Shown in pieces: positions 1,776-48,157 of a stretch of 64,000 nt of DNA. The DNA is from Vulcanimicrobiota bacterium. GTDB lineage: Bacteria > Vulcanimicrobiota > Vulcanimicrobiia > Vulcanimicrobiales > Vulcanimicrobiaceae. Position 1 is the stretch's first letter, and each line of letters starts with the position of its first letter. The notes beneath the pieces were generated by a model, which ran no database searches, was not told the origin of the DNA, and was given only the letters and a program-made list of their open reading frames with translations. Location: assembly GCA_963777315.1 (NCBI GenBank), contig CAVZQC010000002.1, forward strand, positions 640,001 to 704,000, in the 5' to 3' direction. Position numbers and translations under genes: made by a program.

Positions 1776-1963
1776 TGCTGCGCGCGGCTGCGGCGATGCT
1801 GTGCGACGAATCGGCGAGCACGCTGGTCGAATACGGCTTGATCGTGGCGCTGTGTTCGGCCGGCGCGACGATCGTGCTTCTCGGAATCGCGGCGAGCGCA
1901 AACGGCTTGCTCGCGAGCGTTTCGTCCAACATGCAGTCGTTCCAGACTGCGCCGCCGCCGTAG
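1775..1963 (+). CDS. flp: Flp family type IVb pilin
   Basis: 62 aa; DESASTLVEYGLIVAL Flp motif plus hydrophobic helix; TGATG overlap with the secretin. Confidence 0.88.
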   Translation: MLRAAAAMLCDESASTLVEYGLIVALCSAGATIVLLGIAASANGLLASVSSNMQSFQTAPPP

Positions 1964-1968
1964 CCTGC

Positions 1969-9539: not shown

Positions 9540-10388
9540 CTATGTTTCTACGTCGAGTCCCAAATCCAGCGCCGGAGCGCTGTGGGTGATCCAGCCCGAT
9601 GAAATCAGATCTACGCCCGCGGCCGCCACGCTCGCGACGCTCTCTTCCGAGATGCCCCCCGAGGCCTCGCTGATCGCGCGTCCGCCGATCATCCGTACCG
9701 CCTGCGCAAGCCGTTCGGGCGGCATGTTGTCCAGGAGCACGGCGTCGATCCGCGTTTCCAGGGCTTGGGCCAGCTGATCGAGCGTATCGACCTCCACTTC
9801 GATCTTCACCATGTGGCCGGCACGTTCGCGCGCGGACTGCACCGCTGCGGCGATCGAACCCGACAGCGCGAGATGATTGTCTTTGATCAGAACGCCGTCG
9901 TCCAAACCGAACCGGTGATTGGCGCCGCCGCCGCAGCGCACGGCATATTTTTCCAGCGCGCGCAAGCCCGGCGTCGTCTTGCGAGTGCAGACGATTTGCG
10001 CGCGGTACGGCGCAACTAAGTCCACCAAGCGCCGTGTCGCAGTCGCGATTCCGGACAGCCGGCACATGAGATTGAGCGCGGTGCGTTCGCCGGTAAGCAG
10101 CGCTTGCGCGCTGCTCGATATCGTGGATATGGTCTGCTGCGGCTGTACGCGGTCGCCGTCGCGCACGTGATTGCGAATCTTCGCGCCCGGATCGAGCAGT
10201 TCGAACGTTATGCGGGCGGCGTCGATTCCCGCGACGATTCCGCCGGTCCGCGCGACGATTCGGCCGGTCGCGCGCAGGTCCGAGGGCACGATTGCCTCCG
10301 TGGTGAGATCGCCGCCGTGACCGATGTCTTCCAGCAGCGCGTTTCGCACGATCGGCTCGAACACGAGCCGGTGAGGACTGCTATGCAA
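9540..10388 (-). CDS. nadC: Nicotinate-nucleotide pyrophosphorylase
   Basis: CTRKTTPG, HRFGLDD, LIKDNH, EVEVD, LLDNM; TTG start overlapping nadB is inferred. Confidence 0.95.
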   Translation of the reverse strand: MHSSPHRLVFEPIVRNALLEDIGHGGDLTTEAIVPSDLRATGRIVARTGGIVAGIDAARITFELLDPGAKIRNHVRDGDRVQPQQTISTISSSAQALLTGERTALNLMCRLSGIATATRRLVDLVAPYRAQIVCTRKTTPGLRALEKYAVRCGGGANHRFGLDDGVLIKDNHLALSGSIAAAVQSARERAGHMVKIEVEVDTLDQLAQALETRIDAVLLDNMPPERLAQAVRMIGGRAISEASGGISEESVASVAAAGVDLISSGWITHSAPALDLGLDVET

Positions 10389-11925
10389 CGCCGGCGAGCG
10401 TGGTGAACGAGCGTTTGGCAAAAGCTTGATCCGCATGCGGGTAATCGCTGCGGTAGTGGCTTCCGCGGCTTTCTTTGCGCGCGAGCGCCGCCCGCGCGAT
10501 CAGGCGTCCCACCGTAATCAAATTGCGCAGCTCGTTGCTTTGCGCCGGGTGCGCGCCGTCCAACGACGCCAGCCGCTCCAGCGCGGCGCGCAAGCCCGAA
10601 TCGTCACGCACCAGTCCGACGTTGGCGTACATCAGGGCTCGCACGTCGGCAACGGCTTGATCGTCGTCGTCGCTCGCCGGTTGCGTCGCCAAGCCATATT
10701 CGAACCGCGTCGACGCTGCCGGCAGCCGGGCGCCGGCGACGTCTTTGGCCACTCGGGTTGCGTATACGAGCGCTTCGAGCAGCGAATTGCTGGCCAAACG
10801 ATTCGCGCCGTGCACGCCGGTGGCGCTGGTTTCGCCGCATGCCCACAGACCTGCAAGCGACGAACGGCCCCAGGCATCGACGGCGATTCCTCCCATATGA
10901 TAATGCGCGGCGGGCGTGACCGGTATTGCGATCCGGCGCGGATCGATTCCCGCGTGCATGCACGCGGCGAACACCGTGGGAAACGCCCGCGGAAAGGCAT
11001 CGCCGATCGTTTCGCGCGCGTCAAGGCCGACGGTCCGGCCCGCGCGCTGCTGAAAAAAGATCGCTCGTGCAACGACGTCCCGGGGCGCGAGTTCGGCATC
11101 CTCGTGCAGGTCGAGCATGAAACGTTCGCCCAAATCGTTGCGTAGGATCGCGCCTTCACCCCGAATCGCTTCCGTCACCAGCGGCAGCGGATCGCTCGCG
11201 ACCGCGAGCGCCGTCGGATGAAACTGCACGAACTCGACGTCGCCCAGTACCGCTCCCGCGCGCGCGGCCATCGCCGCTCCGTCGCCGGTGGATTGCGGCG
11301 GGTTGGTCGTGTAACGGTAGAGCCGCCCGATGCCTCCGCTAGCCAGAACCGTTGCTCGCGAATGCACGATCAAGTATTCGCGCGTATCGGCATGGTGAGC
11401 GTACACGCCGGTGACGCGGCCGTCGGTTACGATGAGATCGTCGGCGACGACGTTTTCGAGCACGGCGATCGCCGGCGTCGCCCGAACCGCCGTTATCAGC
11501 GTGGTGAGAATCTCGCGGCCGGTTGCGTCCCCGCCGGCTTTGATGATGCGCCGTCGCGTGTGCGCGGCTTCGCGTCCCAGCGCCAGCGTGCCGGCCGCAG
11601 TGCGATCGAACGCTGCGCCGAGCTCGAGCAGATCTTCGATGCGCGCGGGCGCATCGCGGGTGAGGATATCGACGATCGCTTCGTCCGAAAGGCCTGCGCC
11701 TGCACGCTGCGTGTCGATTTTGTGCAGCGCCGGCGAATCGTCCGCGCCGATCGCGGCCGCAATGCCGCCCTGCGCCCAATCGGTGGTGGCGCCGCTTCCC
11801 AGCGCCGTTTTGCACAGCACCGTCACTGCAGGGCCGGAGCCCGCGCCGGTGCGGTGCGGCGCGAGTTTGAGCGCAGCGGTCAAACCTCCGATGCCCGCAC
11901 CGACGATGAGGACGTCGCTATGCAC
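10381..11925 (-). CDS. nadB: L-aspartate oxidase
   Basis: [49 protein letters not shown]; lies between nadA and nadC. Confidence 0.95.
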
Positions 11926-12949
11926 TGTACTGCAGCATCCGCTCCACGGCAGCACGCGCACGCTGCGCGACGGCAGGCTCGATGCGGACTTCGTACTCCA
12001 TGGTCTGCAGCGAGTGCAATATCTTGGGTAGCGTATTGCGTTTCATGTGCGGGCACAGATTGCACGGGCGCACGAACTCGACTTGCGGGAATCGCGCCGA
12101 CACGTTGTCGGCCATCGAACACTCGGTGATCATCACGACGCGCGGTTTGCCGGCGCCGGCGCGAGCCGCAAGCGTCTCCACGTACCGTCCCATTCCTTGC
12201 GTCGATCCGACGTAATCGCAGGCGGCCAAAACGTCGGGAGGACATTCCGGATGTGCGAGAACGACCAGCGACGGATCGTCCTGGCGGTAAGCGCGGATTT
12301 GATCGCCGGTAAAGCGCTCGTGCACTTCGCAGTGCCCCTTCCATGCAACGATCTGCACGTCAGTCTGGGACGCGACCCACTTGGCCAGATATTCGTCGGG
12401 AAGAAAGATGACGCGCGCAGCGCCTAGCGCTTTGACGATTTTGAGCGCATTGCCGCTGGTCACGCACACGTCGGATTCGGCTTTGACTTCCGCCGACGTA
12501 TTGACGTACGTCACGACCGGAACGCCGGGATAGCGCTCGCGCAAAAGCCGCACGTCGGCGGCCGTGATCGACTCGGCCAGCGAACAGCCCGCGCGCAAGT
12601 CCGGCACGAGAACGGTTTTGCCCGGGTTGACCAGCTTGGCGGTTTCGGCCATGAAATGCACGCCGCAGACGACGATGACTTGCGCGTCGGTGCGCGCGGC
12701 TTCCATCGCCAAACCCAGCGAATCACCCACGATGTCGGCGACGGTGTGAAAAATCTCGGGCACCTGGTAGTTGTGCGCAAGAATGACTGCGTTGCGCTCG
12801 CGTTTGAGCCGCTGTATTTCGGCGACATAGGGGGCGTGGATAGGCCATTCGACGGCCGGGATAACGTGCGCGACGCGCTCGAAGATGGGCCGGGTCTGCG
12901 CCTGCACTTCCGGCGTGTACGGCAATTCCGCAGCGGTCATTCCTTTCAT
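11918..12949 (-). CDS. nadA: Quinolinate synthase
   Basis: [35 protein letters not shown]. Confidence 0.96.
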
Positions 12950-31202: not shown

Positions 31203-31205
31203 GAC

Positions 31206-32153
31206 TCACCGCACCGTGACGGTGCCGATCATGCCGGTCGGGCCGTCGTGAAATAGGCAGTAATACGTGTATGTCCCAGGTTTCGTGAAGGTCAGACTGT
31301 AGCTTGCGCCGGGTGCCATCACGCCCGAGTTGGTGAGCGCACTGCCGTCATAGGTCGGTCCACCGGACGGCGGAACTTGGTCGGGCGATCCTGTGGGCGG
31401 CTGCTGTCCCAGCGCCGGAAAGGTCACCGTGTGCGGCGCGTTGTTCGCCTCGTTGGTCCACGTCACGGTCGTGCCGGCCGCAATCGTGATGTTGCTCGAA
31501 GCTCCGGTTTTGTCGTCGAGGAAGCGCACCACCGTGGCTTGCGAGGGTTTTGTGCCGGACAGTCCTGGCGAAATGCCGGCGGCAAGATGCGTTCCGCCGG
31601 CGCCGTACGGGAAGAGCTGCAGCGCGGATGCGCCGGCTTGAAGATCGGTAGAGAGATCGGCCGCCGCGGCCGCCGCGTATTGCGATGCCGACATCGGCAG
31701 CGGGGCGCCTGCGGGAACCACGACGATCGTTCCGCTCATTTCGGGCCGGTGCACGATGCAGTAATATGCGTACGCCCCCGGGTGGGTGAACTGCACGACA
31801 TACGATTTGCCTTTGGTGATGAACCCGGAACTGATGTACGCGCTGCCGTCGAAGACGTTGGCGCCGGCCTGGGCGGGATTAGGGGCGCCGGGCGGCGGCA
31901 TTTGCCCCACCGGCGGGATGGAAACCGTGTGCGGAATGCTCGTGCTATTGGTCCACGAGATCGTATCCCCGGCGTGAATCGTGATCGCGTTCGGATAAAA
32001 GTCCAGCGCTTGAATGGCTTGAGAAGATGCGGAACCGCCGGCTCCGACGCTCCACGTCTGCGGCGCATCCGCCGTGGGAGGCGCACCTGTGCCGCTGCCG
32101 GCTCCTCCGCATGCAACCAGTGCGAAAAGTAAGGCGAGCGCGAGTAGCTTCAT
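31206..32153 (-). CDS. Lipoprotein with two cupredoxin domains
   Basis: GGAGG RBS; lipobox LVAC; PHTVS...YYCIVHRPEM and PHTVT...YYCLFHDGPTGM. Confidence 0.88.
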   Translation of the reverse strand: MKLLALALLFALVACGGAGSGTGAPPTADAPQTWSVGAGGSASSQAIQALDFYPNAITIHAGDTISWTNSTSIPHTVSIPPVGQMPPPGAPNPAQAGANVFDGSAYISSGFITKGKSYVVQFTHPGAYAYYCIVHRPEMSGTIVVVPAGAPLPMSASQYAAAAAADLSTDLQAGASALQLFPYGAGGTHLAAGISPGLSGTKPSQATVVRFLDDKTGASSNITIAAGTTVTWTNEANNAPHTVTFPALGQQPPTGSPDQVPPSGGPTYDGSALTNSGVMAPGASYSLTFTKPGTYTYYCLFHDGPTGMIGTVTVR

Positions 32154-32172
32154 GGAATACCTCCTTGGCTCG

Positions 32173-32218
32173 TGAGACAGATGTCTCATGAAGGGGTATT
32201 CGTGATACTAGAGTATCA
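32173..32218. promoter_or_regulatory. Two palindromic operators, probably TetR sites
   Basis: TGAGACA-ga-TGTCTCA (32173-32188) and TGATACT-ag-AGTATCA (32203-32218), 30 bp apart in the divergent intergenic region. Confidence 0.75.
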
Positions 32219-32226
32219 GGACGGAG

Positions 32227-32814
32227 ATGTCAAGCACATACGAGCACAACGGCCGGACCGCTCAAAAGCAGCGCACGCGGCAATCGCTAATCGATGCGGC
32301 GCGCGAATTGCTGGATGAGGGCGCTACGCCGACAGTGGAACAGGCCGCGGAGCGGGCGCGGCTCTCACGGCCCACCGCGTACCGCTACTTCCGCAGTCAG
32401 TCGGAGCTGCTGCTCGCAGCGCACCCCGAACTCGCAGTCGATTCGCTGCTGCCGCAAAAGGCGCCGGACGATCCGGTGCGCCGGCTCGATGCCGCATCGG
32501 GGGAGTTAATGGGTCTTCTGCTCGAACACGAACGCGCGCTGCGCGCGATGTTCCGCCTTTCGGCCGAAAAAGCGCCGCAAACACCGCCGCCTGCGCTGCG
32601 CAGCGGCAGACGGATCCGATGGGTCGAAGATGCGCTTGCGCCGGTGCGCAAGAAACTGGGGCCGAAGAGATTCCGGCGGTTGGTTTTGCAGATCGGCGCA
32701 ACGCTGGGAATCGAGCCGCTCATGTGGCTCATCGACGTTGCGCACCTGGAGCGGCAGGAAGCGGTAGACATCCTGCGGGCGTCCGCCCGTGAATTGCTGC
32801 GGGCTGCGCTGTGA
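32227..32814 (+). CDS. TetR/AcrR family regulator
   Basis: RTRQSLIDAA...TVEQAAERARLSRPTAYRYF HTH. Confidence 0.93.
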   Translation: MSSTYEHNGRTAQKQRTRQSLIDAARELLDEGATPTVEQAAERARLSRPTAYRYFRSQSELLLAAHPELAVDSLLPQKAPDDPVRRLDAASGELMGLLLEHERALRAMFRLSAEKAPQTPPPALRSGRRIRWVEDALAPVRKKLGPKRFRRLVLQIGATLGIEPLMWLIDVAHLERQEAVDILRASARELLRAAL

Positions 32815-33212
32815 ACGTCGAGCCGGAAGACCTCCGGGCGCTGGAGAACGTCGTAGCGCAACTGGCCCTTGCGTGGAATGACGGCGACGCTGCGCGCTTT
32901 GCCGCCGTGTTCGCGAACAGCGCGGAACAAGTCAATATCTTCGGAGCGCAGATTCACGGGCGCCCGGAGATCGAAGAAAAGCACAACCGCATCTTCAAGA
33001 CGATCTATCAAGGAAGCGCGAACACGCTGCGTCTCGTGAGCGCGCAGGCGATCGCCGACGGCGTGCTGCTCGCGCGCGTCTCCTCGCGTGTAGAAGTGCC
33101 GCGGGGTCCGATGAAAGGCGCGCTGGAAACGATAATTTCGATGCTGCTCAAGCGCGACGGCGGCCGCTGGGAAATTATCCTGTTTCACAACACCAGGGTA
33201 GCCGCGAAGTAG
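32811..33212 (+). CDS. SnoaL/NTF2-like (SgcJ/EcaC, DUF4440) protein
   Basis: AWNDGDAARFAAVF, GRPEI, RWEIILFHNT. Confidence 0.85.
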   Translation: MNVEPEDLRALENVVAQLALAWNDGDAARFAAVFANSAEQVNIFGAQIHGRPEIEEKHNRIFKTIYQGSANTLRLVSAQAIADGVLLARVSSRVEVPRGPMKGALETIISMLLKRDGGRWEIILFHNTRVAAK

Positions 33213-33215
33213 CCC

Positions 33216-33821
33216 ATGCCGCTGCAAAATCGCGTAACGCCTTTCGGTGAAATACTGGCCCTGCACGGGCGCGGCCTGATGATGGGCAACCGCGGCATCC
33301 TGCACGATGACGATCGCCGAATCGTTCGGCAGTGGCAATGCCGCCGCTGGATCGCGTGCGTGCTCAGTTACCGCGGAATACGGCGAACCGTCATGCGTCC
33401 GCATTCGTATACCGAGCTCTTCTTTTTAGACGAAGCCGCCGCGCTCAGTGCCGGTCATCGGCCATGCGCGGAGTGCAGGCGCAACGAGTACGATCGTTTC
33501 AAGGCATTGTGGGAAGCGTGCCGCGGCAGCGCGACGAACGCGGAGGCGATGGACGCCGTACTCGATGCGGAGCGCCGCGCCGGTCGCGCAAAGCGCACGC
33601 ACCGCGCGGATTTCCGTTCGCTGCCGGACGGAACGTACGTCAGCCTCGACGGCAAAGCATGGCTGGTCTGGGCGGGGCGAATGCACGCGTGGTCTGACTC
33701 CGGTTACGCCGAGCATCGCACGTGCCGCTCCGGTGATGTCGTCGTCCTTACGCCGCCGTCGATCGTCGCGGTGTTGTCAGCGGGATATACACCTTTCGTG
33801 CATCCAAGTGCGTTGCCGTGA
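33216..33821 (+). CDS. Conserved hypothetical protein with an Ada-like Cys motif
   Basis: MPLQNRVTPFG, MGNRGILH, FFLDEAAALSAGHRPCAECRR. Confidence 0.82.
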   Translation: MPLQNRVTPFGEILALHGRGLMMGNRGILHDDDRRIVRQWQCRRWIACVLSYRGIRRTVMRPHSYTELFFLDEAAALSAGHRPCAECRRNEYDRFKALWEACRGSATNAEAMDAVLDAERRAGRAKRTHRADFRSLPDGTYVSLDGKAWLVWAGRMHAWSDSGYAEHRTCRSGDVVVLTPPSIVAVLSAGYTPFVHPSALP

Positions 33822-33834
33822 TCGCGCCGCACCG
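33613..33834 (+). repeat. 222-bp direct repeat, copy A (3' end of the hypothetical gene)
   Basis: Ungapped match to 36622-36843; 11 mismatches by manual alignment. Confidence 0.95.
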
Positions 33835-34324
33835 ATGAAGACCCGCGTGGCCGGCGGAAACGATGGCATAACGCTGTCGGTACGATAAACGCGCCCACTG
33901 TGGAATCGAGGACGGCTGCGTTTGCGCCCGGCGGCACGTAGATGGCAAGATCGCAGCCCGAACCGTTAACGTTGAGGTTGGATGCGGGCTTCGTCAAAAT
34001 CATCTTTGCGGACAGACCGGCCGCGTTGGACCCGGTCAACGTGATGCATCCGTTTTGCGAAGTCCCGGCCGAAAGCGGTCGCCGCATCGCGCTCCGCGTC
34101 GCTGCGAACCGCGATTTTCGATTGATTTCGGGCGCAAGCAGCAGCCGTTCCCGCTCGGCGAAAGTCATCCGCCTGCCCGGCCCCGTCGTGTTCGGCAACC
34201 AGGTGTTGGTTTGGGCGCCACTCAAAGGTGTGGTCACCGAGGGTGTGCTGCCGCCTTTAGCGCATCCGGCCAGCGCGCATGCCGCCGCAGCAGCTGCGGC
34301 TATTGGCCAAAACGATTTCGTCAT
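33835..34324 (-). pseudogene. 3'-truncated lipoprotein gene
   Basis: GAGGAG RBS, MTKSFW...LAGC lipobox; protein-like sequence ends near 33890 and the frame runs into the antisense of the repeat. Confidence 0.65.
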
Positions 34325-34630
34325 CGCAGTATCTCCTCGGCTTATTGAGGCCGAACCGTGCGGTAACAGCATGCTACGGTCGTGACGACAGTATATGGCG
34401 GTCACTTTCCAACCACTTTGCGGCCTGTCTACGTTGCCTTGCCGATTTCCGGCCGCTCTTAAACGAACGGCACCGACGGGCACAACTCTCTACGCACTCA
34501 GCTGCTAAGGTTTAATTTGGGGTACTGGTTGGAGGTGTGGTCATCAACGGCGGATACAACTTGGCCGCGGCGATTGTCGAAGCGCTAATTGCCTTCGGTT
34601 GACGCTACGGCACCGATGGGAGGAACGGCC

Positions 34631-35188
34631 ATGTCGAAGGAAGGCGCCGTGATCGGTGTCTCGGATCACGGTGGTTGGGCGGTGTTGGTGACGGTGGCGC
34701 ACGACGGCACGCTGCTCGACCGCCGCCGAGTCGAGCTCGTCGATGAGAATTTGCCAAGTATTCCCTGCCACCACGAAGCGCAGCTGCTGCCGACGGACCA
34801 GGCAGTAGCGCTGGTCGAGCGGGTACGCGTATCGGCGGAGCGACACGCCGTGCTTTCGCTGGACGCCGTTGCGCTCGCCGTCCCGAACGTCCTTGGCGTT
34901 GCCCTTCGAAGCTGTCCGCCGCTTCCGCCGACGATCGCCGAGCGCATCAAGGACTATCGCGCACGAAACGTGGCCGATTGGGTGATGTATCGCAAAGCTC
35001 TCGCCTTCGCAGCCGAGACGCGTGGCTGGCTTGTCTATTGGTACGATGCAAAGACGGTACTTGCGTCGGCGAGGCACCTTGTAGAGCTTCGGAGCGCGGT
35101 CGGGCCGCCATGGAATGCGGATCACAAACTGGCAATGGCGGCTGCCAAGCTTACCGGCCGCAAGCCGGCAATGCGATTGCGCAGTTGA
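34631..35188 (+). CDS. Hypothetical protein
   Basis: GGAGG RBS; MSKEGAVIGVSDHGGWAVLVTV...GPPWNADHKLA. Confidence 0.78.
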   Translation: MSKEGAVIGVSDHGGWAVLVTVAHDGTLLDRRRVELVDENLPSIPCHHEAQLLPTDQAVALVERVRVSAERHAVLSLDAVALAVPNVLGVALRSCPPLPPTIAERIKDYRARNVADWVMYRKALAFAAETRGWLVYWYDAKTVLASARHLVELRSAVGPPWNADHKLAMAAAKLTGRKPAMRLRS

Positions 35189-35214
35189 AATCAAATCGCC
35201 CGAACCTAACGAGA

Positions 35215-35698
35215 TTATCTCAACGCGTTGCGCAACGAACGCCTTAAGTCGTTCATGCCTTGATACACGAAGTTGTCGATCTGCCAGCCCGTGGAACGCC
35301 GGACGGCGACCACGCGCACGACGGCGCTGCCGTTACCGCCGGAAAATCGGATTCGCACCGGAACGACGGCGCTACTCGCGTTACCCGAAGGCGCGAGAAG
35401 CGCGTATGACGACGGTTCGGACTGCGACTCCGCTGAAAGGGTCGAAATCGAGCATTTCCGCGTGCTCTCGGCCCTCCTCCGTTACGAGTTTTTCGAGCGA
35501 AGCATAGAGCGACGGCGTAAAGTACGTGCGGGCGCCGGAAAGTTTGGTCCAATTTCCATGCGTTGACAGATACCAGGTGTAGAAGGCGTTCACGACGGGG
35601 ACGGCTCCGGAGGTTTGCGCGAACGCAATTCGGCCGCTCATCCCAAGGATCGCTACGATCAGCAACGCCATGAGTAAGGGGCCGGCTCGACTAAGCAT
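35215..35698 (-). CDS. Exported DUF3828/YbjP-like protein (one +1 frameshift near 35429)
   Basis: Signal peptide, VNAFYTWYL, LDFDPFSG then +1 frame SQSEPSSY...GWQIDNFVY...LRNALR*. Confidence 0.6.
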
Positions 35699-35716
35699 CG
35701 CCTCAACGATACGACG

Positions 35717-36190
35717 TTAAAGCGTTTCGGGCAAGACGCCAGGTAGGACCGCCCCAGATGGGTTCTCGCTATTCCGGACATTAGCGATCGTGGTTTGCAT
35801 GAGCGCGATTAGCTTGTAGGAAGGCTCGCCGCCTACAAAGGCTCGGACTTCGCCAGTGCAGACGGTAAGCAATTTTCCGGCGCTCGCCACTCTCCCAATT
35901 GCAAGAAAGGTTTCGCCCAGCGCCGGCCGCAGCAAATTGATTTTGAACTCCGCGCTAACCACTTCGTAATCTTGCGGCGCCTTCGTGAGTGCCGCATAGC
36001 CGCAGGCGCTGTCGAGAATGCTGGTAACAGCACCAGCATGCACAAAGCCATGCTGCTGGGAAAGACGCTTGGAGGATGTCAGCGCAATATGCACCTCGCC
36101 TTCTGCGACGAGAACCAGTCTTGCGCCGAGGGTCTCCATCAGCCCTTGCGCGCCGAAGCTGATGGCGATTCGTTGTTGGATATCGATCAT
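35717..36190 (-). CDS. PaaI family thioesterase
   Basis: QQHGFVHAGAVTSILDSACGYAA, EFKINLLRPA. Confidence 0.9.
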   Translation of the reverse strand: MIDIQQRIAISFGAQGLMETLGARLVLVAEGEVHIALTSSKRLSQQHGFVHAGAVTSILDSACGYAALTKAPQDYEVVSAEFKINLLRPALGETFLAIGRVASAGKLLTVCTGEVRAFVGGEPSYKLIALMQTTIANVRNSENPSGAVLPGVLPETL

Positions 36191-36299
36191 GGAGGCTGCG
36201 AACATATCACATCGTTGCGGGCCGGCGCAATCGCACGTGCTGCGCTGGAGCGCCCGGGAAGCGCCCAGCGACGATCACTCGCGACAACTTTGGAGTCGT

Positions 36300-36622
36300 T
36301 TAGGGAAGCATATCCGAAATCTCAATGTGTTTACCGTCTGTTGCCACACTGGCGGCGCCGTTTTTATCACTGCGGTAGATGCGTGCGCCGAAGCGCAAAA
36401 GCGTTTCGATGGTGGACGGCGCCGGGTGACCGAACATGTTGTGCCGGCCGACCGAAATGATCGCATACCGGGGATGCACGGCAGCGATGAAAGCAGAGCT
36501 ACTGCTGTACGCCGATCCGTGATGTCCAACTGTGAGCACGTCAACGCGCAAATCTAGGCCTTCGCTTAGAAAACGCTGTTCCGCGGCAACGCCGGCATCA
36601 CCCGTAAGCAGCATGCCGAACT
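36300..36622 (-). pseudogene. comEC: Start-less second copy of the comEC 3' end (~106 codons, alternative C-terminus)
   Basis: Colinear with 40647-40969; MLLTGDAG...VGHHGS...GHPAPSTIETLLRFG; 41 bp identical core at 36385-36425 = 40732-40772. Confidence 0.93.
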
Positions 36623-36843
36623 CCGTTCGCTGCCGGACGGAACCTACGTTAGCGTCGACGGCAAGGCATGGCTCGTCTGGGCGGGGCGAATGCACGCGTG
36701 GTCTGACTCCGGTTACGGCGAGCATCGCACGCGCCGCTCCGGTGATGTCGTCGTCCTTACGCCGCCGTCGATCGTCGCGGTGTTGTCGGCGGGATATCCA
36801 CCTTTCGTGCATCCCAGTGCGTCGCCGTGATCGCGCCGCACCG
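36622..36843 (+). repeat. 222-bp direct repeat, copy B (start-less 3' fragment of the 33216-33821 gene)
   Basis: ~95% identical to 33613-33834; frame and stop (36828-36830) preserved. Confidence 0.95.
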
Positions 36844-37174
36844 TTTTCCTAGGCGTCGCCTTCGAGACCGCCGGGCCGTCCACATCGCGGCCGCCGTGCT
36901 GCCGCGCCGCATCGGCCACGAGCGCCACTTGCTCGGGGCTGTTGCAGCAAAGCGCGAACCGATTTACATTGGGCACCATCGCCACGTCGGCAACGATGCC
37001 GAAAAACTCATCGTTCGGTGACCAGCCGTCCGCGCGCCAACCGGCTTCGTTCTGGGCAAAGAGCGGGTACGTTTGCCGGCGGAACCCTAGCACGGCGAGT
37101 ACGGCATCGTAGAATCGCGCCGAACGTTCGAGATCACGTACGCGCACGTCGATGTGGCTGAAAAGCCGCGGCAT
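36844..37174 (-). pseudogene. 3'-truncated VOC/glyoxalase family gene
   Basis: FSHIDVRVRDLERSARFYDAVL...GGRDVDGP; lacks the final F-x-D-P-x-G-N strand and has no stop before the repeat. Confidence 0.8.
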
Positions 37175-37405
37175 GGTCCAGTCTTCGTCGGGGGTGCGTG
37201 GCGCTCCATGTCGCGTTCTTACGCCGGAACACGCACGCATGTTGAGCAGGTAGCGGCGATTCTGCGCCCTCTGCTACGTCGCCTGAATTTCCCGCTGGTT
37301 GATCGCGTCATTCACGCCATGATTGGCAATAAGGCGCTCGCTAGGGTTTGCCGGCTCGGAACTTCGCCGGCGGAGCGAGACGTCCCCGACGCGAAATTGT
37401 GGCGC

Positions 37406-40208
37406 GTGGCGACTCGCGTGAAATCGGGAACGCCCTCTTCCCTCCGTCCTAGCGGCACGGTCACTTTCTTGTTTTCCGATATCGAAGGCAGCACGGAACG
37501 CTGGGACCGCGATCGCGATGCGATGAGTGGTGCGGTCGCGCGGCACGATGCCCTGATGCGCGCAACGCTCGAGGCGCACGGCGGTTACATCTTCAAAACC
37601 ATGGGCGACGAATTCTGCGCCGCTTTTTTCACTGTGCCCGACGCCATCGGAGCGGCGCTTCAAGCACAGCGCGCGCTTGACGCGCAAGATTTCTCGGCCG
37701 TTGCGGGGTTGCGCGTCCGCATGGCGCTGCATACCGGAACCGCCGACGAACGCGACGGCGACTACTTCGGGCCCACGGTGAACCGCGTGGCGCGCCTGCT
37801 GGCAATCGGCCACGGCGGTCAAGTGTTGGTCTCCGGCACCGCCGCGGATGTGCTTGGCACCGAGATGCCGCAAGAAGGCGCCTTACGCGATTTGGGCCGG
37901 CATCGACTCAAAGATCTTTCGCGTCCCGAACGGGTCTGGCAGCTCGTGGCGCCCGATTTACCGCAATCATTTCCGGCGGTGCGCTCGCTCGACCATGTGT
38001 CGAACAATCTGCCGGCGCAGCTGACGACATTCGTGGGACGCGGCCAAGTCATCGCGGCAATCAAGACCTTGACCGAGCAACATCGGCTTGTGACGTTAAC
38101 CGGCACGGGCGGCGTTGGTAAAACGCGGTGCGCAGTTCAGATTGGTGCCGAGCTCCTCGACCAATTCGGCGACGGCGTGTGGCTGGCGGAGCTCGCACCA
38201 ATCTCCGATCCGGCGCTCGTAACAAGCGTGGCTGCGCGAGCGCTGAACCTTGAGGAGCAACCGAACCGCCCACTGATTGAGACACTGCTCACGTATCTGA
38301 AGCGCAAACGCTTGTTGCTCATTCTCGACAATTGCGAGCATGTTATTGACGAAGCGCGGCGCCTCTCGGGTGCCATCCTGCGCGGTTGCCCCGAGGTGCG
38401 GGTCATCGCGACCAGCCGCGAGCCTTTGAATATCTCCGGCGAAGCGACGTATCGCATGCCGTCGCTCGAGGTTCCGTCCGACACGCGCATGCCTGACGCG
38501 GAAGGCTTGACGCAGTACGGGGCCACTCAGCTGTTCGTCGATCGTGCGCAGCTTAGCAACAGTCGGTTCGCGTTGACACCGGAGAATGCAATCCATGTGG
38601 CGGAGATCTGCCGGCGGCTCGATGGGATCCCTCTAGCGATAGAATTCAGCTGCAGCGCGAATAAAAGTGCTCTCGCCAAAGGAGCTGGCACGCAGGCTCG
38701 ACGAGCGCTTCCGCCTGCTCACGGACGGAAACCGCACTGCGTTGCCGCGTCAACGCACCATGCGCGCGCTCATCGACTGGAGCTACGATCTGCTGTCCGA
38801 CGACGAACGCATGCTGTTCAGAAGGCTTTCGATTTTCGCCGGCGGCTTCACCATCGAAAGCGCCGCTGCGGTATGCGCCGCCGGCGCGATTGACGAGATG
38901 GCCTTGCTCGAACCGCTCGCGTCGTTGGTCGACAAATCCCTCGTACAAGCCGATGCTGCTGCGGAAGGGACGCGCTACCGGCTCTTGGAGTCGACACGCG
39001 AGTACGCGCGTGAGAAGCTGACGGAGCGCGGGGAATATTCGGCGGCTGCGCACGCGCACGCGCGTGCGTTCCTTGCGCTTGCGGAGAAGCTGGACCGGCT
39101 GGACGATACGACTGCGGATCGCACGTGGATCGCGCAAGCCAAGCCGGAGATGGAAAACTGGCGCGCCGCGTTAGGCTGGTCGCTCGGTTTACGCGGCGAC
39201 GTCGCGCTGGGACAGCGTCTTGCCGGTACGATGCGATGCATGTGGCTCTACCTAGCGGCAAGCGAAGGCCGCCGCTGGATTGCGTCCGCGCTTGACACAT
39301 CCGACCATACGACGTCTGCTGGCGTAGTCGCAAGATTACAGCTTGCCGAGGCGCAGCTGTGTGCGGGCCTCGTGCAGCACAAAGCCTCGGGCGATGCGGC
39401 ACAGCGCGCGCTCGAACGACTGCAGGAGTCCAATGACTCCGACGTCGTGGAAGCGCAGCGGTTGGTGGGCCGCGCCGGCCTCCTTCTCGGACACGGCGCC
39501 GAAGGCGAAGTACTCCTACGCGAGGCGCTGGCGGGCGCTGAAAAATTCGGGATGCACAAAGCGAGAGCGAGAATCCTAAAAGATCTTGCGATGGCGCGAT
39601 TGACCGCAGGGGACCTGGACGCGGCCCGAGCGTTATTCAACGATGCGCGCACACTTGCTCGCGCGTTGGGCGCGGATCAGCTGACGGGATTCGTTGCGAT
39701 CCACTCGGCCGAGCTGGAGTTTGAGCGCGGTGACGCCTCAGCGGCTGCGCAGCTCGCGAGCGAGGCACTCGCAGCATCGCGCTCGCAAAATGATCCGCGA
39801 CGCGCTACTAACGCACTTTTGAACCTGAGTGCCTATCTGGTAGCCCTGGGACGCTATGAAGAGGGTCGCAATCGGGCGTGGGACGCGCTTACGTTAGGTC
39901 GCGATCTCCAGGGCGGCGTTCTTACGGCATTTGCTCTACAGCATCTTGCAGCGGGCGCGCTGTTTCGCGCCGCGGACGAAGGCAGTCCCCCAATCGAATC
40001 CAGCGCGCGAGCGGCGCGCTTGGCGGGTTATATTGATAGGCAGCTCCATGCACTGGAGGCCGTGCGCGAATACACCGAGCAGCAAGAGTACGACAAGATG
40101 GTCGCCGCCTTGCGCGCTGCGCTTGGCGAAGAAGAACTGGGAAAGCTGATGTCCGAAGGCGCCGCATGGCTTGAGGATCGCGCCGTCGCCGAGGCTCTGC
40201 TCATCTGA
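37406..40208 (+). CDS. Class III adenylate/guanylate cyclase + STAND-type ATPase + TPR protein (one +1 frameshift near 38647)
   Basis: TFLFSDIEGST, KTMGDEF, DYFGPTVNRVAR; GTGGVGKT, LDNCEH, LDGIPLAIE|AAAR; helical repeats; start uncertain. Confidence 0.9.
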
Positions 40209-40234
40209 GGCTTCCAGCGGTAACACCAGGCCGG

Positions 40235-40477
40235 TCAAATCACGCGAATGACGCCCATCATCCCATTATCTTCGTGGAAAAGCATGTGGCAGTGATAAAC
40301 GAATTCGCCGCGCGGCACGTTTCGGAAGTCCAATACAATCCTCGTGCGGCTCGGTTGGATGAGCGGGAAATTTGGATCGCCGGGATTGGGCAGCATGCGC
40401 CCGGGGGGAATATTCACAGTGTCGAGCATAACGGGCACCGGCGTTTCCTCTTCAGCGGCGAAGGCCATCTGATGAAT
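40235..40477 (-). pseudogene. 3' fragment of a multicopper oxidase
   Basis: IHQ...LDTVNIP...FVYHCHMLFHEDNGMM; the upstream HxxHxH motif is cut and there is no 5' part. Confidence 0.85.
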
Positions 40478-40646
40478 GCGCGATCGCCGGAATTGCTCGG
40501 GCAGCACAAGGAGATCGAGCGCGAAGGAATTCCCGCGCGCGGCAAGGGGAAGAGACATCTTCTCCTTGCCTATCTTCGCGAACATCCCGAAGAACTGCGT
40601 CCGGTGTTGCGCAAAAGAAGCGCGCTGTAGAGGCGGCAGCGTGTCG

Positions 40647-42950
40647 CTAAGGCAGCATGGGGCGCACCGTTGTCCGGGTGCCATCGGTCGTCACGGTGAC
40701 GGCGGCGTTCTCGTCGGTTCGGTAGGTGTGAGCGCCGAAGCGCAAAAGCGTTTCGATGGTGGACGGCGCCGGATGGCCGAACATGTTGTGGCGGCCGACC
40801 GAAACGATCGCATACCGGGGATGCGCGGCAGCGATGAAAGCAGGGCTACTGCTGTACGCCGATCCGTGGTGTCCGACCTTGAGCACATCCGCATGCAGAT
40901 CGATTCCTTCGCTTAAAAACCGCTGCTCCGCGGCAACACCCGCATCGCCGGTGAAGAGCATCCGGAACTGCTTGTACTGCAGGACGAAGGCGATGGAATT
41001 ATCGTTGATGGTGTTGTTGCTTTCGATGAGCGGCAGCGACGGGCCGATGAACGTGAGCGTTACGCCATCATCTGTTCGCCACACCATTCCCGCGCGCGGA
41101 TAAACGATGGGAACGTGTTCGCCGAGCGCAGTCTGAATCGCATCGTTGTACGCGTAACCACCATATCGCTGCCCGCTATCCGCAAGTTCCGAAACGGAAA
41201 AGGCGCGCAAGACCGGGGCGATTCCGCCGGCATGGTCTCCGTGAGGATGCGAAAGCAGCACGGCGTCCAATCTGCGCACTCCGACGCGCCGCAGGAACGG
41301 CACGACGATTCGTTCGCCGACCAGTTCCGCACTCGATCCGGCAGCCGTGCCGCGTTCCAGCCGTCCCCCGGCGTCGACCAGCAGCGTATGGCCGGCCGGC
41401 GTTTGAATGACGATACCGTCCGCCTGCCCAACATCCAGCACGGTGATGCGCAGACTCGTGTCCACGTGGAGTGGCGGTGTCATGACGACGGCGAACGCTA
41501 ACGCCGCCGCGAGCAGCGCCGGCGTGCGGGCGCCGCGTTTCCAACACCACACCGCCATCACCAAGCCGCAGTCATAACAGGCGATCGTCCACGCCGGCGG
41601 CGGCGTAACGGCAAGGGCGGCGTGCGGCAGCGTTGCAATCGTGTGCACGACGGCGACGATCCAAGCCAACACCCAGCTATTGACGTTGGCGAGAAGCTGC
41701 GCTATCGGGGAAAGCCGGTACGCGAGCAACTGCAGTGCGGCCAGGATCATCGTGACGCCTACTGCCGGCACGACGAGAAGGTTTGCGAGCAGCGCGTACG
41801 ATGAGAACATGAGAAAAATCGAGGCGGTCAGCGGCCACGTTCCGATTTGCGTGGCCGCGGTCAGAACGAGAGCCTCCTTCACTCGCTCGGGAACCGCGAG
41901 CGATTCGAGCAGCGGGCCGATCTGGTCCGAGAGCAGCAAAATCGCGCCTACGCAAGAGAACGAAAGCGCGAAGGAAGCGCTGCCGACGCTCTCGGGGCGC
42001 CACATTGCCAGCGCCGCCATCGCGATACCGTACGCATTCCAAGAAAGAGGCCGCGCTCCGGCTGCATAGGCCGCTAAACCGAACGTCGTCATCAGGGCGG
42101 CGCGCGTTGCCGGCAAATGCAGACCACCGAAAGCCGCATATCCCCAAATTGCAGCAGTCGCCACCGCGCAGGCTGCGACGCGTGGTACGGTGAGTGCGCG
42201 CAGCAGCGCCATTACAACCAGCGCGACGATACCCAGATGCAGGCCGGCGGTCACGAGCACATGCACCGTTCCCGTTTCCTGAAACTCTGCGCGCAGATCG
42301 GGGGCCAAGGCGGCCCGTTCACCCCACAGTTCTCCCGCGACGATCGAAGCGTACGGTTCGGCAATGCGCGCGCGCAACTGCGCGAGCGTCCACTCGTGCA
42401 TGTGAGCCAACGCGATCGGGATCGTAAGGTTGGCCACGGGCAAAGTCGCCAACACGTGCGCGCCGCTCATGCGCGCATCCAGGCCGCGCTCGCGCTCGAT
42501 GCGGGCTTGATCCGGCTCGCCGGGGTTACGCGGTCCGTCGAACGGCTCGAGCCGCCCGCGAAGCAGCACGTGCGCGCCGACTGCCGGAGCGGTGCCCACT
42601 CCATTGACGGCAAGCGCCGGGCCGCGATCGCAAGCGCAGGTATATGCCGCAGCGCCATTGCCGGATTGCGCGAGATCGAGCACGGTGCATGCAACCCGCG
42701 CCGTATGCGCTCGCACTGCGGCGTATCCGGTCGGCAGGTGCTGCAGCGTTCCGCTGGTCGCGCCGGCTGCTAGGGCGAAAGCTGCAAACAGTCGAAATCG
42801 CTCCGGCTGCGCCCTGCGTATCATGCCGTCTGCGCAAAAGAACGCAATGGCAGCGAGCAGAAGGATGCGAACGGTGCCGTCAATCGGCTGGGTGAGCGCT
42901 GCACCGGCTGCAGCGGACAAGCCCACGACCAGCAGCGGGCGGCGTGCCAT
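40647..42950 (-). CDS. comEC: DNA uptake channel ComEC/Rec2
   Basis: RNPGE OB domain, HVLVTAGLH, FALSF, LDVGQAD, SHPHGDHAGG, KVGHHGS. Confidence 0.95.
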   Translation of the reverse strand: MARRPLLVVGLSAAAGAALTQPIDGTVRILLLAAIAFFCADGMIRRAQPERFRLFAAFALAAGATSGTLQHLPTGYAAVRAHTARVACTVLDLAQSGNGAAAYTCACDRGPALAVNGVGTAPAVGAHVLLRGRLEPFDGPRNPGEPDQARIERERGLDARMSGAHVLATLPVANLTIPIALAHMHEWTLAQLRARIAEPYASIVAGELWGERAALAPDLRAEFQETGTVHVLVTAGLHLGIVALVVMALLRALTVPRVAACAVATAAIWGYAAFGGLHLPATRAALMTTFGLAAYAAGARPLSWNAYGIAMAALAMWRPESVGSASFALSFSCVGAILLLSDQIGPLLESLAVPERVKEALVLTAATQIGTWPLTASIFLMFSSYALLANLLVVPAVGVTMILAALQLLAYRLSPIAQLLANVNSWVLAWIVAVVHTIATLPHAALAVTPPPAWTIACYDCGLVMAVWCWKRGARTPALLAAALAFAVVMTPPLHVDTSLRITVLDVGQADGIVIQTPAGHTLLVDAGGRLERGTAAGSSAELVGERIVVPFLRRVGVRRLDAVLLSHPHGDHAGGIAPVLRAFSVSELADSGQRYGGYAYNDAIQTALGEHVPIVYPRAGMVWRTDDGVTLTFIGPSLPLIESNNTINDNSIAFVLQYKQFRMLFTGDAGVAAEQRFLSEGIDLHADVLKVGHHGSAYSSSPAFIAAAHPRYAIVSVGRHNMFGHPAPSTIETLLRFGAHTYRTDENAAVTVTTDGTRTTVRPMLP

Positions 42951-42995
42951 CGCAAAACCCATCGCGACGGCGACGCGGTAAGTAAAGGGGAAGAC

Positions 42996-45004: not shown

Positions 45005-47467
45005 AACCACCAAGTTGAGCAGCTTATCCGGGACGTAAATACGTTTGCGTACTTGCTTGCCGTCGAGATGCGCCCGCACGCCGGGCTGCTCGAGCGCCAG
45101 CGAGAACGCGCGTTCCTCGTCGAGCCCCGGCGAGACCTGAAGGCGCGCTCGAACCTTACCGTTGATTTGCACCACGAGCGTAATCTCGTCCAGTGCCAGC
45201 GCGCCTTCGTCGGGTTCCAGGAATGGCTCTCGATGTATCGACTGCGAGTGCCCCAGCCGCTCCCAGAGTTCATCGGCGATGTGCGGGGCAAAGGGCGCCA
45301 TTACCAGCGGTAACGCATGAACTGCGTACAGGACGACTCTAGAATCCGGATCCGTTTGCAGCAAGGCGGTGAGCGCGTTGACGTACTCGTCGAGTTTGGC
45401 AATGGTCGTATTGTAATGAAAGCGGCGCGAAAGGGTTTCGTCGATTGCGGATTTGGCCGCCACGTGCACGGCGCGCAGCAAATCCTTTTCCCGCTGCGAT
45501 TGCGAGGCCGGCATTGCACGAACGTCGACGGCGCCGGCGCGCTGCGCCAGCGGAGCGCACGCGCGCCACACGCGATTGAGAAAACGGACGCGGCCCGATA
45601 TGCCCGCCTCGGTCCAGTCGCTGGTGTCTTCGGGCGGCGTGACGTACAGCAGGAACAATCGCATCGCGTCGACGCCGTTGCGTTCGGCCGTCTGATCGAT
45701 GCCGACGACGTTGCCGCGCGATTTGCTCATCTTCTCGCCGTGATAGAGCAGCATGCCCTGATGGAACAAGCGCGCGAACGGCTCGTTCGAGCCGGTCACC
45801 CAGCCGCGATCGTGAAAAAACTTGTAAAAAAAACGCGAGTAGAGCAAGTGCAGCACGGCATGCTCGGCTCCGCCGATGTACTGGTCGACGCTCATCCAGT
45901 ACTGCGCGCTGCGAAGTTCCCAGGGCTCACGGTCATTCCGAGGATCCAGATAGCGCAGATAATACCACGACGATTCGAAGAAGGTGTCCATCGTATCGCT
46001 CTCGCGTTTGGCCGGGCCGGCGCACTTCGGACACGCAGCGTTGAGAAACTCGGCATCGCGCGCGAGCGGCGAACCTTCGCCCGTGATAGGAACGTTCGCC
46101 GGAAGCACTACGGGCAGATCGCCGTCCGGCACGGCGACTTCGCCGCACCGCTCGCAATACACGATCGGAATCGGCGTTCCCCAATACCGCTGGCGTGAGA
46201 CCAGCCAGTCGCGCAGGCGGAAGTGAACTTGTCGTTCGGCAATGCCGAACGACGCTAGCCGGTCGGTCATCGCGGTGCGCGCTCGCGCGCTGGACATGCC
46301 GGTGAAGTCACCGCTGGCAATCAGCCTGCCGTCCTCGACGAACGCTTGCGCAAGCGGGATTTGCAGCGTACCGGCCGGATCGGTCACCACCTGCGCTATA
46401 GGCAGTCCGTGCTTGCGGGCAAATTCGAAATCACGCTCGTCGTGCGCCGGCACGCCCATCACCGCGCCCGTGCCGTATTCGGCCAGCACGTAGTTGGTGA
46501 CCCAAATCGGCACCCGTTCGTGGGACAGCGGATTGACGGCGTAGGCGCCGGTGAAGACGCCTTGCTTTTCCAGCAAACTGGTGCGTTCGAGTTCCGACTT
46601 GGCTTTCACGTTTTCGGCGAACTCCGCGACGGCCGCCGCGTGTCGTTTGGCGACGATCTCCTGCACGATCGGATGCTCGGGCGCGACGGCTAGATACGTT
46701 GCGCCGAACAGCGTGTCGATGCGGGTCGTAAAGACTTCGATGCGCGCGCCGGAGTTTTCGACTCCAAACGAAAACTGCGTGCCGGCGCTTCGTCCGATCC
46801 AATTGCGCTGCATCGTGCGGGTGCGTTCGGGCCAGCCGCCGAGCTCGTCGAGGTCGTTCAGCAACCGATCGGCGTAGGCGGTGATCTTCAGGAACCACTG
46901 GGAAAGGTTGCGCCGCTCGACCAGGTGATCGCAGCGCCAGCATCGTCCGTCGATCACTTGTTCGTTGGCGAGAACGGTGCGATCGTTGGGGCACCAGTTG
47001 ACGGGCGCCTCGCGTTTGTACGCCAAACCGTTTTCATAGAGGCGCAAAAACAGCCACTGGTTCCAGCGATAGTATTGCGGGTCGCACGTCGCGATCTCGC
47101 GGCTCCAATCGTAGCCGGTCCCCATCAGGCGCACTTGCCGCTGCATGTTGGCAATGTTCTCTCGCGTCCAGACGTTGGGGTCCGCGCCGCGCTGAATGGC
47201 GGCGTTTTCGGCCGGCAACCCGAACGCATCCCAGCCCATGGGATGCAGTACGTTGTAACCCAGCATGCGCATCATGCGCGCCACGGCATCCCCGAACGTA
47301 TAGTTTTTGGCGTGTCCCACGTGCAAGTCGCCCGAAGGATACGGCAGCATCTCGAGCACGTAATATTTCGTACGCGCCGAATCTTCGCGGGCGCGGTACA
47401 CGCCCGTAGCTTCCCAGCGCTCTTGCCATTTCCGTTCGATCGCGCGGTAGTCGTAGACTTCGGGCAT
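44996..47467 (-). CDS. leuS: Leucine--tRNA ligase
   Basis: PYPSGDLHVGH, YGTGAVMGVPAHD, KMSKS. Confidence 0.98.
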   Translation of the reverse strand: MPEVYDYRAIERKWQERWEATGVYRAREDSARTKYYVLEMLPYPSGDLHVGHAKNYTFGDAVARMMRMLGYNVLHPMGWDAFGLPAENAAIQRGADPNVWTRENIANMQRQVRLMGTGYDWSREIATCDPQYYRWNQWLFLRLYENGLAYKREAPVNWCPNDRTVLANEQVIDGRCWRCDHLVERRNLSQWFLKITAYADRLLNDLDELGGWPERTRTMQRNWIGRSAGTQFSFGVENSGARIEVFTTRIDTLFGATYLAVAPEHPIVQEIVAKRHAAAVAEFAENVKAKSELERTSLLEKQGVFTGAYAVNPLSHERVPIWVTNYVLAEYGTGAVMGVPAHDERDFEFARKHGLPIAQVVTDPAGTLQIPLAQAFVEDGRLIASGDFTGMSSARARTAMTDRLASFGIAERQVHFRLRDWLVSRQRYWGTPIPIVYCERCGEVAVPDGDLPVVLPANVPITGEGSPLARDAEFLNAACPKCAGPAKRESDTMDTFFESSWYYLRYLDPRNDREPWELRSAQYWMSVDQYIGGAEHAVLHLLYSRFFYKFFHDRGWVTGSNEPFARLFHQGMLLYHGEKMSKSRGNVVGIDQTAERNGVDAMRLFLLYVTPPEDTSDWTEAGISGRVRFLNRVWRACAPLAQRAGAVDVRAMPASQSQREKDLLRAVHVAAKSAIDETLSRRFHYNTTIAKLDEYVNALTALLQTDPDSRVVLYAVHALPLVMAPFAPHIADELWERLGHSQSIHREPFLEPDEGALALDEITLVVQINGKVRARLQVSPGLDEERAFSLALEQPGVRAHLDGKQVRKRIYVPDKLLNLVVSA

Positions 47468-47536
47468 GCAAGGGTGTTATCGAGAGCGGGACCCGGCGCC
47501 CTTTCGCAGCCTTCGCTCGCGCGTGAAAAATCAGGC

Positions 47537-48157
47537 ATGAACCGCATATTTCTGCTCGGCGCCGCTGCGCTGGTGGTAGCGCTTGCATTTTGGCATCCGG
47601 CCGCGCCCCCTGCGCCGGTAGCGGTCGTTGCAGCGCAGACCGCCCGATTCCATGGTTCAGCGCCAAAACGCCGCCGTGGTGCCATTTCGAGCCAAAGCGT
47701 GGTGGTCTACGTCGCAGGCGCGGTCGAACGTCCCGGACTGTATACGCTCGCTTCCAGCGCGCGCGTAAACGATGCCGTCGCGCGCGCGGGCGGTTTGCGT
47801 TCGGATGCGGATGCCGACGCGATCGATCTGGCCGAACACGTCACCGACGGCGAAGAGATCCGCGCGCTGCGCATCGGCGAGCCGGCGCCCCGGGCCGCGC
47901 ACCGTCACACCGCCCGGCGTCGTCCCTCACGCAAAGCTCGCGTACCGGTGGGCGTTATCGACGTCAATACCGCCGATGCGTCGGCGCTGACCGCGCTTCC
48001 GGGCGTCGGCACGACGTTGGCAGAACGCATCGTCGAATACCGCCGCGTCAACGGCCCGTTTGCCTCACTGGACGAACTCGCCGACGTTGCAGGCATGACG
48101 CAGCGCCGCATCGACGCGATCGCGCCGTATCTTGCGCTGCATGATGCCTCGCAGTGA
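47537..48157 (+). CDS. comEA: ComEA family DNA-binding protein (SLBB + HhH)
   Basis: TM anchor, VYVAGAVERPGLY, IDVNTA, LPGVG, RIVEYR. Confidence 0.93.
   Translation: MNRIFLLGAAALVVALAFWHPAAPPAPVAVVAAQTARFHGSAPKRRRGAISSQSVVVYVAGAVERPGLYTLASSARVNDAVARAGGLRSDADADAIDLAEHVTDGEEIRALRIGEPAPRAAHRHTARRRPSRKARVPVGVIDVNTADASALTALPGVGTTLAERIVEYRRVNGPFASLDELADVAGMTQRRIDAIAPYLALHDASQ

Follow-up and report, generated by a model that had tools for sequence, protein, structure and literature searches.

Here we describe a 64,000-nucleotide stretch of a Vulcanimicrobiaceae genome (below, the window; contig C2, 640001-704000, of a 2.83 Mb source assembly in 6 contigs), in which the 3' ends of the competence gene comEC and of a nearby hypothetical gene, hyp, each occur twice. 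We propose that the window is probably what is left of a cassette array: a stack of cassettes behind comEC would have collapsed, after which two alleles of about 95% identity recombined and left the joint at position 36622. An original prediction, made from the letters of the window, had read the locus as two alleles stacked between two conserved anchor genes with no recombinase involved. The comparison with relatives presented here points to an internal site in comEC, codon 576, at which integrase-free cassettes are stacked and at which elements encoding a large serine recombinase (LSR) split the gene.

Tallies across the family were made over 347 Vulcanimicrobiaceae genomes, of which the unpublished ones enter the denominators only and supplied no locus, and a closer comparison was made with 40 relatives, 24 of them from the same family (genomes, contigs and loci are numbered with the prefixes G, C and L). 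Extra pieces of the 3' half of comEC are present in cis in five of the 24 same-family relatives, and a sixth relative has a split gene; the 3' end of leuS, which served as a control, has no duplicated piece in the same 40 genomes. Most of the displaced comEC ends in the loci fetched start at codon 576 and lie behind a conserved arm of about 24 bases that is not comEC sequence. A pattern made of this arm and codon 576 matches 35 sites in 21 of the 347 genomes, from 7 genera, with no match to the reversed pattern, although it was derived from some of the sites counted, whose genomes are not independent. G239 alone carries four such sites. No match to the arm pattern was found in viral contigs. 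Other displaced ends start at codons 557, 572, 615, 660, 687, 692, 702 and 722, and the arms of G014 and G208 differ from the common one. Among the 27 of these 35 sites whose position was checked, two are far from the main comEC locus (G053:C2:924715 and G054:C3:20089) and may be secondary sites or moved cassettes. In L053 (G312) and L056 (G308) we also noted displaced comEC pieces whose start, near codon 572, follows an upstream sequence that the two have in common but that differs from the arm above, perhaps an arm of another type.

The integrase-free form of the cassette consists of comEC codons 576-771, cargo and one recombinase arm. Such cassettes are stacked behind an intact comEC, the older 3' ends having been pushed downstream, and at the level of sequence comEC is whole and the site still usable. 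The segments between copies that were measured (n=26) span 0.7-12.2 kb with a median of 2.9 kb, and they carry metabolic, regulatory and stress genes. No recombinase family was found between comEC copies, either in 137 downstream open reading frames (ORFs) or in 131 of 201 predicted ORFs, a scan from which comEC pieces and some short ORFs were left out. In several relatives, for example G001, G007, G050, G052 and G064, the cassettes are flanked by retained attachment (att) sites. Whole cassettes recur among different species of one genus and in different slots: slot 2 of G050 is 96% identical to slot 1 of G052 over 2913 bp, and slot 1 of G047 recurs in G056 (99% over 4509 bp) and as slot 3 of G052 (91-95%).

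A candidate enzyme was found at the same codon. In G093 and G269, comEC is cut at codon 576 with an LSR directly behind it, the insert in G269 being about 37 kb, and PF00239 is present in the LSRs of G269 (491 aa), G093 (508 aa) and G252, the last of which also matches PF07508. With the G269 protein as query, matches at E<=1e-30 were obtained in 21 of the 347 genomes. At E<=1e-60 there are 12, and 10 of them adjoin comEC at a cut in codon 576, with attL and attR accounting for five each; none of the 10 more distant LSR loci lies beside a comEC cut there. A pattern for the mirror half-site, attL, has 7 sites in 6 of the 347 genomes; the match in G125 is not at comEC. The arms of the elements are inverted repeats around a GA core. 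When eight attL arms were reverse-complemented and scored against the cassette-arm profile, they were beaten by 0-104 of 5000 shuffles, with several training arms 1-2 bases out of register; the arms of G076 and G001 have their first 12 bases in common. G252 holds attL and an LSR, which is frameshifted, plus further arm-bearing copies across a contig break. Accretion without a recombinase, as originally predicted, is not supported by the relatives, whose displaced ends mostly start at one codon behind an arm that matches the att arms of this LSR clade. We regard the comEC-clade LSR as the likely enzyme of the cassette stack, a candidate that would act on the cassette sites as well as on its own.

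The features of the window locus are listed here with their strand, where one applies.

33216..33821 (+): hyp, an intact hypothetical gene of 201 aa with no Pfam or NCBIfam family; an accessory gene and not a core anchor.
33613..33834 (+): copy A of the hyp 3' end, with 13 bp more, from self-BLAST.
33890..34324 (-): truncated lipoprotein gene of which the 5' third is left; best homologue 453 aa.
34589..35188 (+): hypothetical gene with homologues away from comEC in G007, G015 and G064.
35381..35698 (-): small ORF, DUF3828-like label not confirmed (no Pfam match at E<=0.01).
35717..36205 (-): PaaI-type hotdog thioesterase (4HBT/PaaI), in G064 also behind a displaced comEC end.
36300..36622 (-): displaced comEC 3' end, codons 666-771 with its own stop, without the att arm and codons 576-665 found in relatives.
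36385..36521: homogenised tract (codons about 698-744) with 131/137 identities to 40732-40868.
36622: joint, read as illegitimate, of the comEC copy to hyp copy B, with 1 common base within patchy similarity.
36622..36843 (+): copy B of the hyp 3' end, again with 13 bp more; identity to copy A 211/222.
36845..37174 (-): decayed VOC/glyoxalase gene, cut off where it meets the hyp tail (Pfam match and homologue comparison).
37406..40208 (+): cyclase/NB-ARC/TPR gene, frameshifted near 38650; nucleotide identity is 71% to a G064 gene between two displaced comEC ends.
40235..40478 (-): last ~81 codons of a multicopper oxidase gene (Cu-oxidase_2); homologue in G064 682 aa.
40537..40622: 86-bp stub from the gene directly behind comEC in G064.
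40647..42962 (-): intact comEC, 771 aa, with DUF4131, Competence and Lactamase_B, and TIGR00361 above its cut-off.
41212..41262 (-): putative empty attB, codons H-G-D-H, with the GA core at 41237-41236 (codon 576); the site is cut in relatives.

Self-BLAST of the whole genome returned exactly two repeats, and no third copy of either piece, in agreement with the predicted duplication of both gene ends: the hyp end (33613-33834 and 36622-36843, 95.0%, E 1e-95) and the comEC end (36334-36639 and 40681-40986, 82.4%, E 3e-83). A gapless comparison extends the displaced comEC copy from 36622 down to its own stop at 36300, at about 79% identity to the intact end over 322 bp. The back-to-back fusion is likewise as predicted, in that base 36622 can be assigned to the comEC-derived as well as to the hyp-derived side; the overlap would rise from one base to 2 if the lost hyp allele carried the G001 residue. 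The joint lies within patchy similarity of hyp and comEC (20/40 identities), a value matched by 0.2% of diagonals in the best of four window sizes and by 0.8-2.7% at the other sizes, and this gives modest support to a joint guided by microhomology. The two proposed units do not, however, have a special right boundary in common at 33834/36843, where only the VOC side is cut. Past 33834, the tail of hyp copy A shows weak similarity to G001 (score 34; shuffles 32 at the 95th and 38 at the 99th percentile). The lipoprotein, VOC and multicopper oxidase genes are fragments, as had been stated, all being truncated relative to their homologues; the lipoprotein homology ends near 33890, and longer homologues came from a HMMER search and none from a word-index search. 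One VOC homologue is named from Candidatus Baltobacteraceae, a group that the NCBI taxonomy places in Vulcanimicrobiaceae (phylum Vulcanimicrobiota), and the family of the source genome is taken from this name. The cargo labels stood for 4HBT/PaaI, glyoxalase, cyclase/NB-ARC/TPR and Cu-oxidase_2, and fell for DUF3828. The predicted lack of an integrase or transposase was also found: no integrase, resolvase or transposase family is present among 26 + 40 predicted window proteins, every match in genome-wide searches with PF00589, PF00239 and PF07508 lies outside the window, and a tRNA search of the window found none.

The two comEC copies form a three-part mosaic, with 75/100 identities at 36522-36621, 131/137 at 36385-36521 and 48/85 at 36300-36384. 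Third-position identity across these parts is 50%, 91% and 43%, and the between-genome 95th percentile for such windows is 52-59%, so that the middle tract is a footprint of homologous recombination. Outside it, the copy has background third-position identity to the intact gene, as do most displaced copies. The tract and the hyp repeat are about equally diverged (95.6% and 95.0% identity), and of their codon differences taken together 9 are synonymous and 8 non-synonymous, the expected synonymous share being 27% (P=0.023). Such an excess speaks for two alleles of related strains rather than for duplication and decay, and the involvement of two alleles is a part of the original prediction that we retain. 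At codons 713 and 720 the family consensus is in the displaced copy and not in the intact comEC. Three residues of the displaced copy are absent from 60 intact ComEC halves, a weak pointer to relaxed selection. At third positions, the tail of the intact comEC is 81% identical to that of the displaced copy in the congener G001, the rest of the G001 comEC being near saturation, which argues that comEC tails move between species.

The origin of the window is best seen from G064. There comEC is followed by the gene with an end that matches 40537-40622, then by a complete multicopper oxidase gene, a piece of comEC codons 660-765, the cyclase/ATPase/TPR gene, an arm with comEC codons 576-770, and PaaI. 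Five elements are common to G064 and the window in the same order and orientation, and the cyclase/ATPase/TPR gene is 71% identical over 2.7 kb. In place of the G064 arm and codons 576-665, the window contains the truncated VOC gene and the 222-bp hyp piece.

The following mechanism would link these observations. LSR elements integrate at comEC codon 576 and split the gene, an arrangement whose sequence is seen in 10 genomes. On the most likely route, an element landing at the head of a stack would excise with the distal attR and carry a cassette off, integrate with it in a new host, and re-excise with the proximal attR so that the cassette stays behind; RecA crossovers within the repeated comEC ends would also swap cassettes, and homogenised tracts in 5 of 21 displaced copies point to RecA as well. 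In the window, an ancestral stack like that of G064 would have shrunk by deletions. An allele with VOC fused to the hyp tail would then have recombined with an allele that kept the PaaI block, by homology on one side and microhomology on the other, which would have removed the arm and codons 576-665 and left the 222-bp hyp copy. The joint at 36622 would be a secondary event, homologous at one end and illegitimate at the other, whose insertion and deletion are of similar size, as in homology-facilitated illegitimate recombination (HFIR; PMC3240628).

Several findings weigh against this history. The window has no arm, either by the arm pattern or in a scan with the arm profile (best score 10, against 16-29 for in-register arms), the pattern of arm and codon 576 is absent from the source genome, and there is no comEC-clade LSR there; descent from an att-bounded cassette is thus argued from synteny with G064, at 67-83% identity. 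With 4 candidates scored per genome, G252 is the one arm-bearing genome out of 21 to have a close-clade LSR, and in no genome does a single contig show a complete element together with a cassette that it has captured. Five of 21 displaced copies share tracts of at least 80% third-position identity with their own intact comEC, and homologous recombination alone could therefore move cassettes. As many private residues as in the displaced copy are also found in 5 of 60 intact genes, which weakens that support. Finally, no read spans the joint: the one short-read run contains 8% of the words, and its contigs, with eight exact pieces of 151-175 bp among the matches listed, give no depth at 36208-36641; the reads argue neither for nor against the joint. 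No close strain or parental allele was found in two exact-pattern scans of metagenome contigs.

A different explanation, which we consider doubtful, is that alleles hyp-X-comEC and hyp-Y-comEC (X and Y being the two sets of cargo) were stacked in one event, by a single crossover of a recircularised donor or by HFIR, and that the comEC copy was never an attR remnant. The original prediction had taken this view. According to the available text of an Escherichia coli assay, recircularisation and a single crossover give partial duplications in most recombinants, and HFIR has one homologous and one illegitimate end, produces an insertion with a deletion of similar size, and uses microhomology of mostly 3-10 bp (PMC3240628). 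The joint fits homologous plus illegitimate ends with insertion and deletion of similar size, as far as that text describes them, and lies within patchy similarity, although it has 1-2 bp; the homogenised tract with its synonymous excess, the position of hyp at the end of the slot in G001 and G015 as well, and the armless genome all suit such an event. However, one donor circle leaves unexplained why the donor would be 95% alike at hyp yet 56-75% over most of the comEC end, and HFIR, on the account cited, leaves the common breakpoint of the relatives at codon 576 unexplained. In addition, the order of cyclase, displaced end and PaaI is present in G064 with the arm intact. We judge it improbable that the locus is an assembly artefact in which two strain haplotypes were joined in a metagenome-assembled genome: the assembly does consist of six contigs, the hyp ends differ by a strain-like 5% and the joint is without read coverage, but the join is in mid-gene at one shared base and not within a long shared repeat, the cyclase gene, displaced comEC end and PaaI are independently in cis in G064, and comparable stacks are present in many other assemblies. 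Least probable of all is that template switching duplicated both gene ends within the genome and that the copies then decayed neutrally. In its favour, copy B has 7 of 9 polarisable hyp changes relative to G001 (by eye); against it stand the synonymous excess, the consensus residues at codons 713 and 720 in the copy, and saturated third positions outside the tract.

On the sequences compared, the anchor of these stacks is comEC and not hyp. hyp, taken by the original prediction as a conserved second anchor, is present in 14 of the 40 relatives and adjoins comEC in 2 (G001 and G015), where it also closes the slot; in several others it is on another contig, so that its placement is impossible. 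The variable, gene-accreting slot at comEC was correctly foreseen, since the content of the hyp-comEC interval differs in all three genomes that have hyp beside comEC.

Two further arrangements at comEC were noted. In genus g13 (L013/L014/L076 in G013, L106 in G215, L094 in G217) the membrane part of comEC and its nuclease domain appear to be separate ORFs. The stack there is a mirror image, in which repeated 5' pieces ending at codon 577 come first, then the other arm, then a whole nuclease domain. A second insertion site at codon 692/693 has its own inverted arms and inserts of 27-38 kb (L096/L097 in G137, L098/L099 in G099, L100/L101 in G056, L107 in G357, L016-L018 in G009, L105 in G238 and L112 in G283), with no recombinase family in the ORFs scanned at the insert ends; G238 has a displaced comEC copy starting at this codon.

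With regard to the elements, that of G269 (L088/L089) encodes a tyrosine integrase as a second recombinase at the opposite end and also has terminase-like, primase/AAA, SocA and Schlafen-domain genes, and that of G252 has two tyrosine-integrase ORFs. G283 has an LSR, attR and comEC 572-693 on C2 (L112) and a long comEC match on C3 (L042). The source genome (G000) has a tyrosine integrase and an unrelated LSR (585-aa frame) at C6 1331-5406, probably a mobile element; this LSR was rejected as the enzyme, as it matches the G269 LSR only weakly, is not of the comEC clade, and has no match among the loci compared.

Elsewhere in the window, plastocyanin-like, TetR and SnoaL genes at 31205-33193 match a block behind a decayed comEC piece in G184, without hyp, and are probably older cassette cargo. 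nadC-nadB-nadA lies at 9540-12949, 28 kb downstream of comEC. In G006 and G016, nadA is 4 kb and 16 kb downstream of comEC, which suggests that the whole 13-40 kb stretch may be a variable region with nadA as its far flank. Tad/Flp pilus genes (secretin, TadE/G) and comEA share the window with comEC (360-4621 and 46925-48157).

Several known systems resemble the comEC stack in part. In integrons, mobile cassettes without a recombinase stand in an ordered array at a single chromosomal site, served by IntI and attC; the comEC cassettes differ in being multi-gene, with a gene fragment and a serine-type arm as their boundaries, and no IntI-type (PF00589) match was found in the window or in the scanned cassette ORFs. 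In the case of e14 and phage 21 in icd, a single-unit prophage with its own tyrosine integrase supplies a replacement 3' end that keeps the gene whole and leaves a displaced copy. The comEC cassettes likewise restore the 3' end and leave a displaced copy, but they are integrase-free and stacked.

By analogy, the comEC stack may work like the accretion of cis-mobilizable elements (CIMEs) or of staphylococcal cassette chromosome (SCC) islands, the system itself being neither SCC nor integron. In tandems of CIMEs with integrative and conjugative (ICE) or with integrative and mobilizable (IME) elements of Streptococcus, as described in the available text of two reports, integrase-free, att-bounded blocks of 1-13 kb are stacked at one target gene and moved in cis by a full element, the most decayed blocks being farthest from the gene; these tandems lie at gene ends and use tyrosine integrases, while site-specific serine-recombinase IMEs disrupt their target (PMC5704250, PMC7563491). 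The cis-mobilisation that we suggest for comEC cassettes follows the course portrayed there for ICE/CIME tandems. The relatives' comEC cassettes are similarly integrase-free blocks bounded by att sites and stacked at one gene; they differ in their internal site, in having an LSR as candidate enzyme, and in that each carries about 590 bp of replacement comEC with only one recombinase arm. The window block, like a CIME, has no integrase or transfer genes of its own, but it does not retain att sites on both flanks, the empty comEC site being present and the distal arm gone. SCC islands at rlmH/orfX have, in the text available, an LSR, a GA core, degenerate inverted half-sites and tandem cassettes with internal att sites, some recombinase-free (PMC13739063). 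All of these features, and an order that records age, recall the comEC stack as far as that account goes; by the same account, SCC uses the very end of rlmH with no long replacement, whereas full comEC elements split the gene. The target is comEC and not rlmH, and the comEC LSRs score 24-34 bits against CcrA/CcrB, for which the cut-offs are 700-900. Insertion of LSR elements into comEC is not new in itself: LSR target genes are enriched in PF03772 (ComEC), at 15 target clusters versus 0 random (false discovery rate 0.0014; PMC10083194), and a genomic island in comEC of Streptococcus pneumoniae is listed (PMC12378983). The accessible portions of both papers describe disruption and not gene-restoring cassette stacks. 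No gene-restoring cassette stack at an internal LSR site in comEC was found in a literature search of titles and abstract openings, in which subscription journals were thinly covered.

Tentatively, one could go further and imagine that the Vulcanimicrobiaceae run an integron-like capture platform in comEC, though we would not yet bet on it. Cassettes would borrow the recombinase of the elements that disrupt the gene, possibly by a non-canonical attR x attB reaction, and each insertion would return a working 3' end, so that a disabling strategy is turned into gene gain that preserves competence; the window would be a late, eroded stage. The main interest of our findings lies in the family-wide system and its candidate enzyme, the window being a decayed example that could not have been recognised without its relatives. 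LSR elements in competence genes are usually read as turning DNA uptake off, while the same comEC site carries integrase-free stacks whose cassettes leave comEC whole and pass from species to species. Should the assignment of the enzyme be true, it would provide a defined and testable set of LSRs and att sites for a poorly studied phylum and would extend CIME-type accretion to internal serine-recombinase sites.

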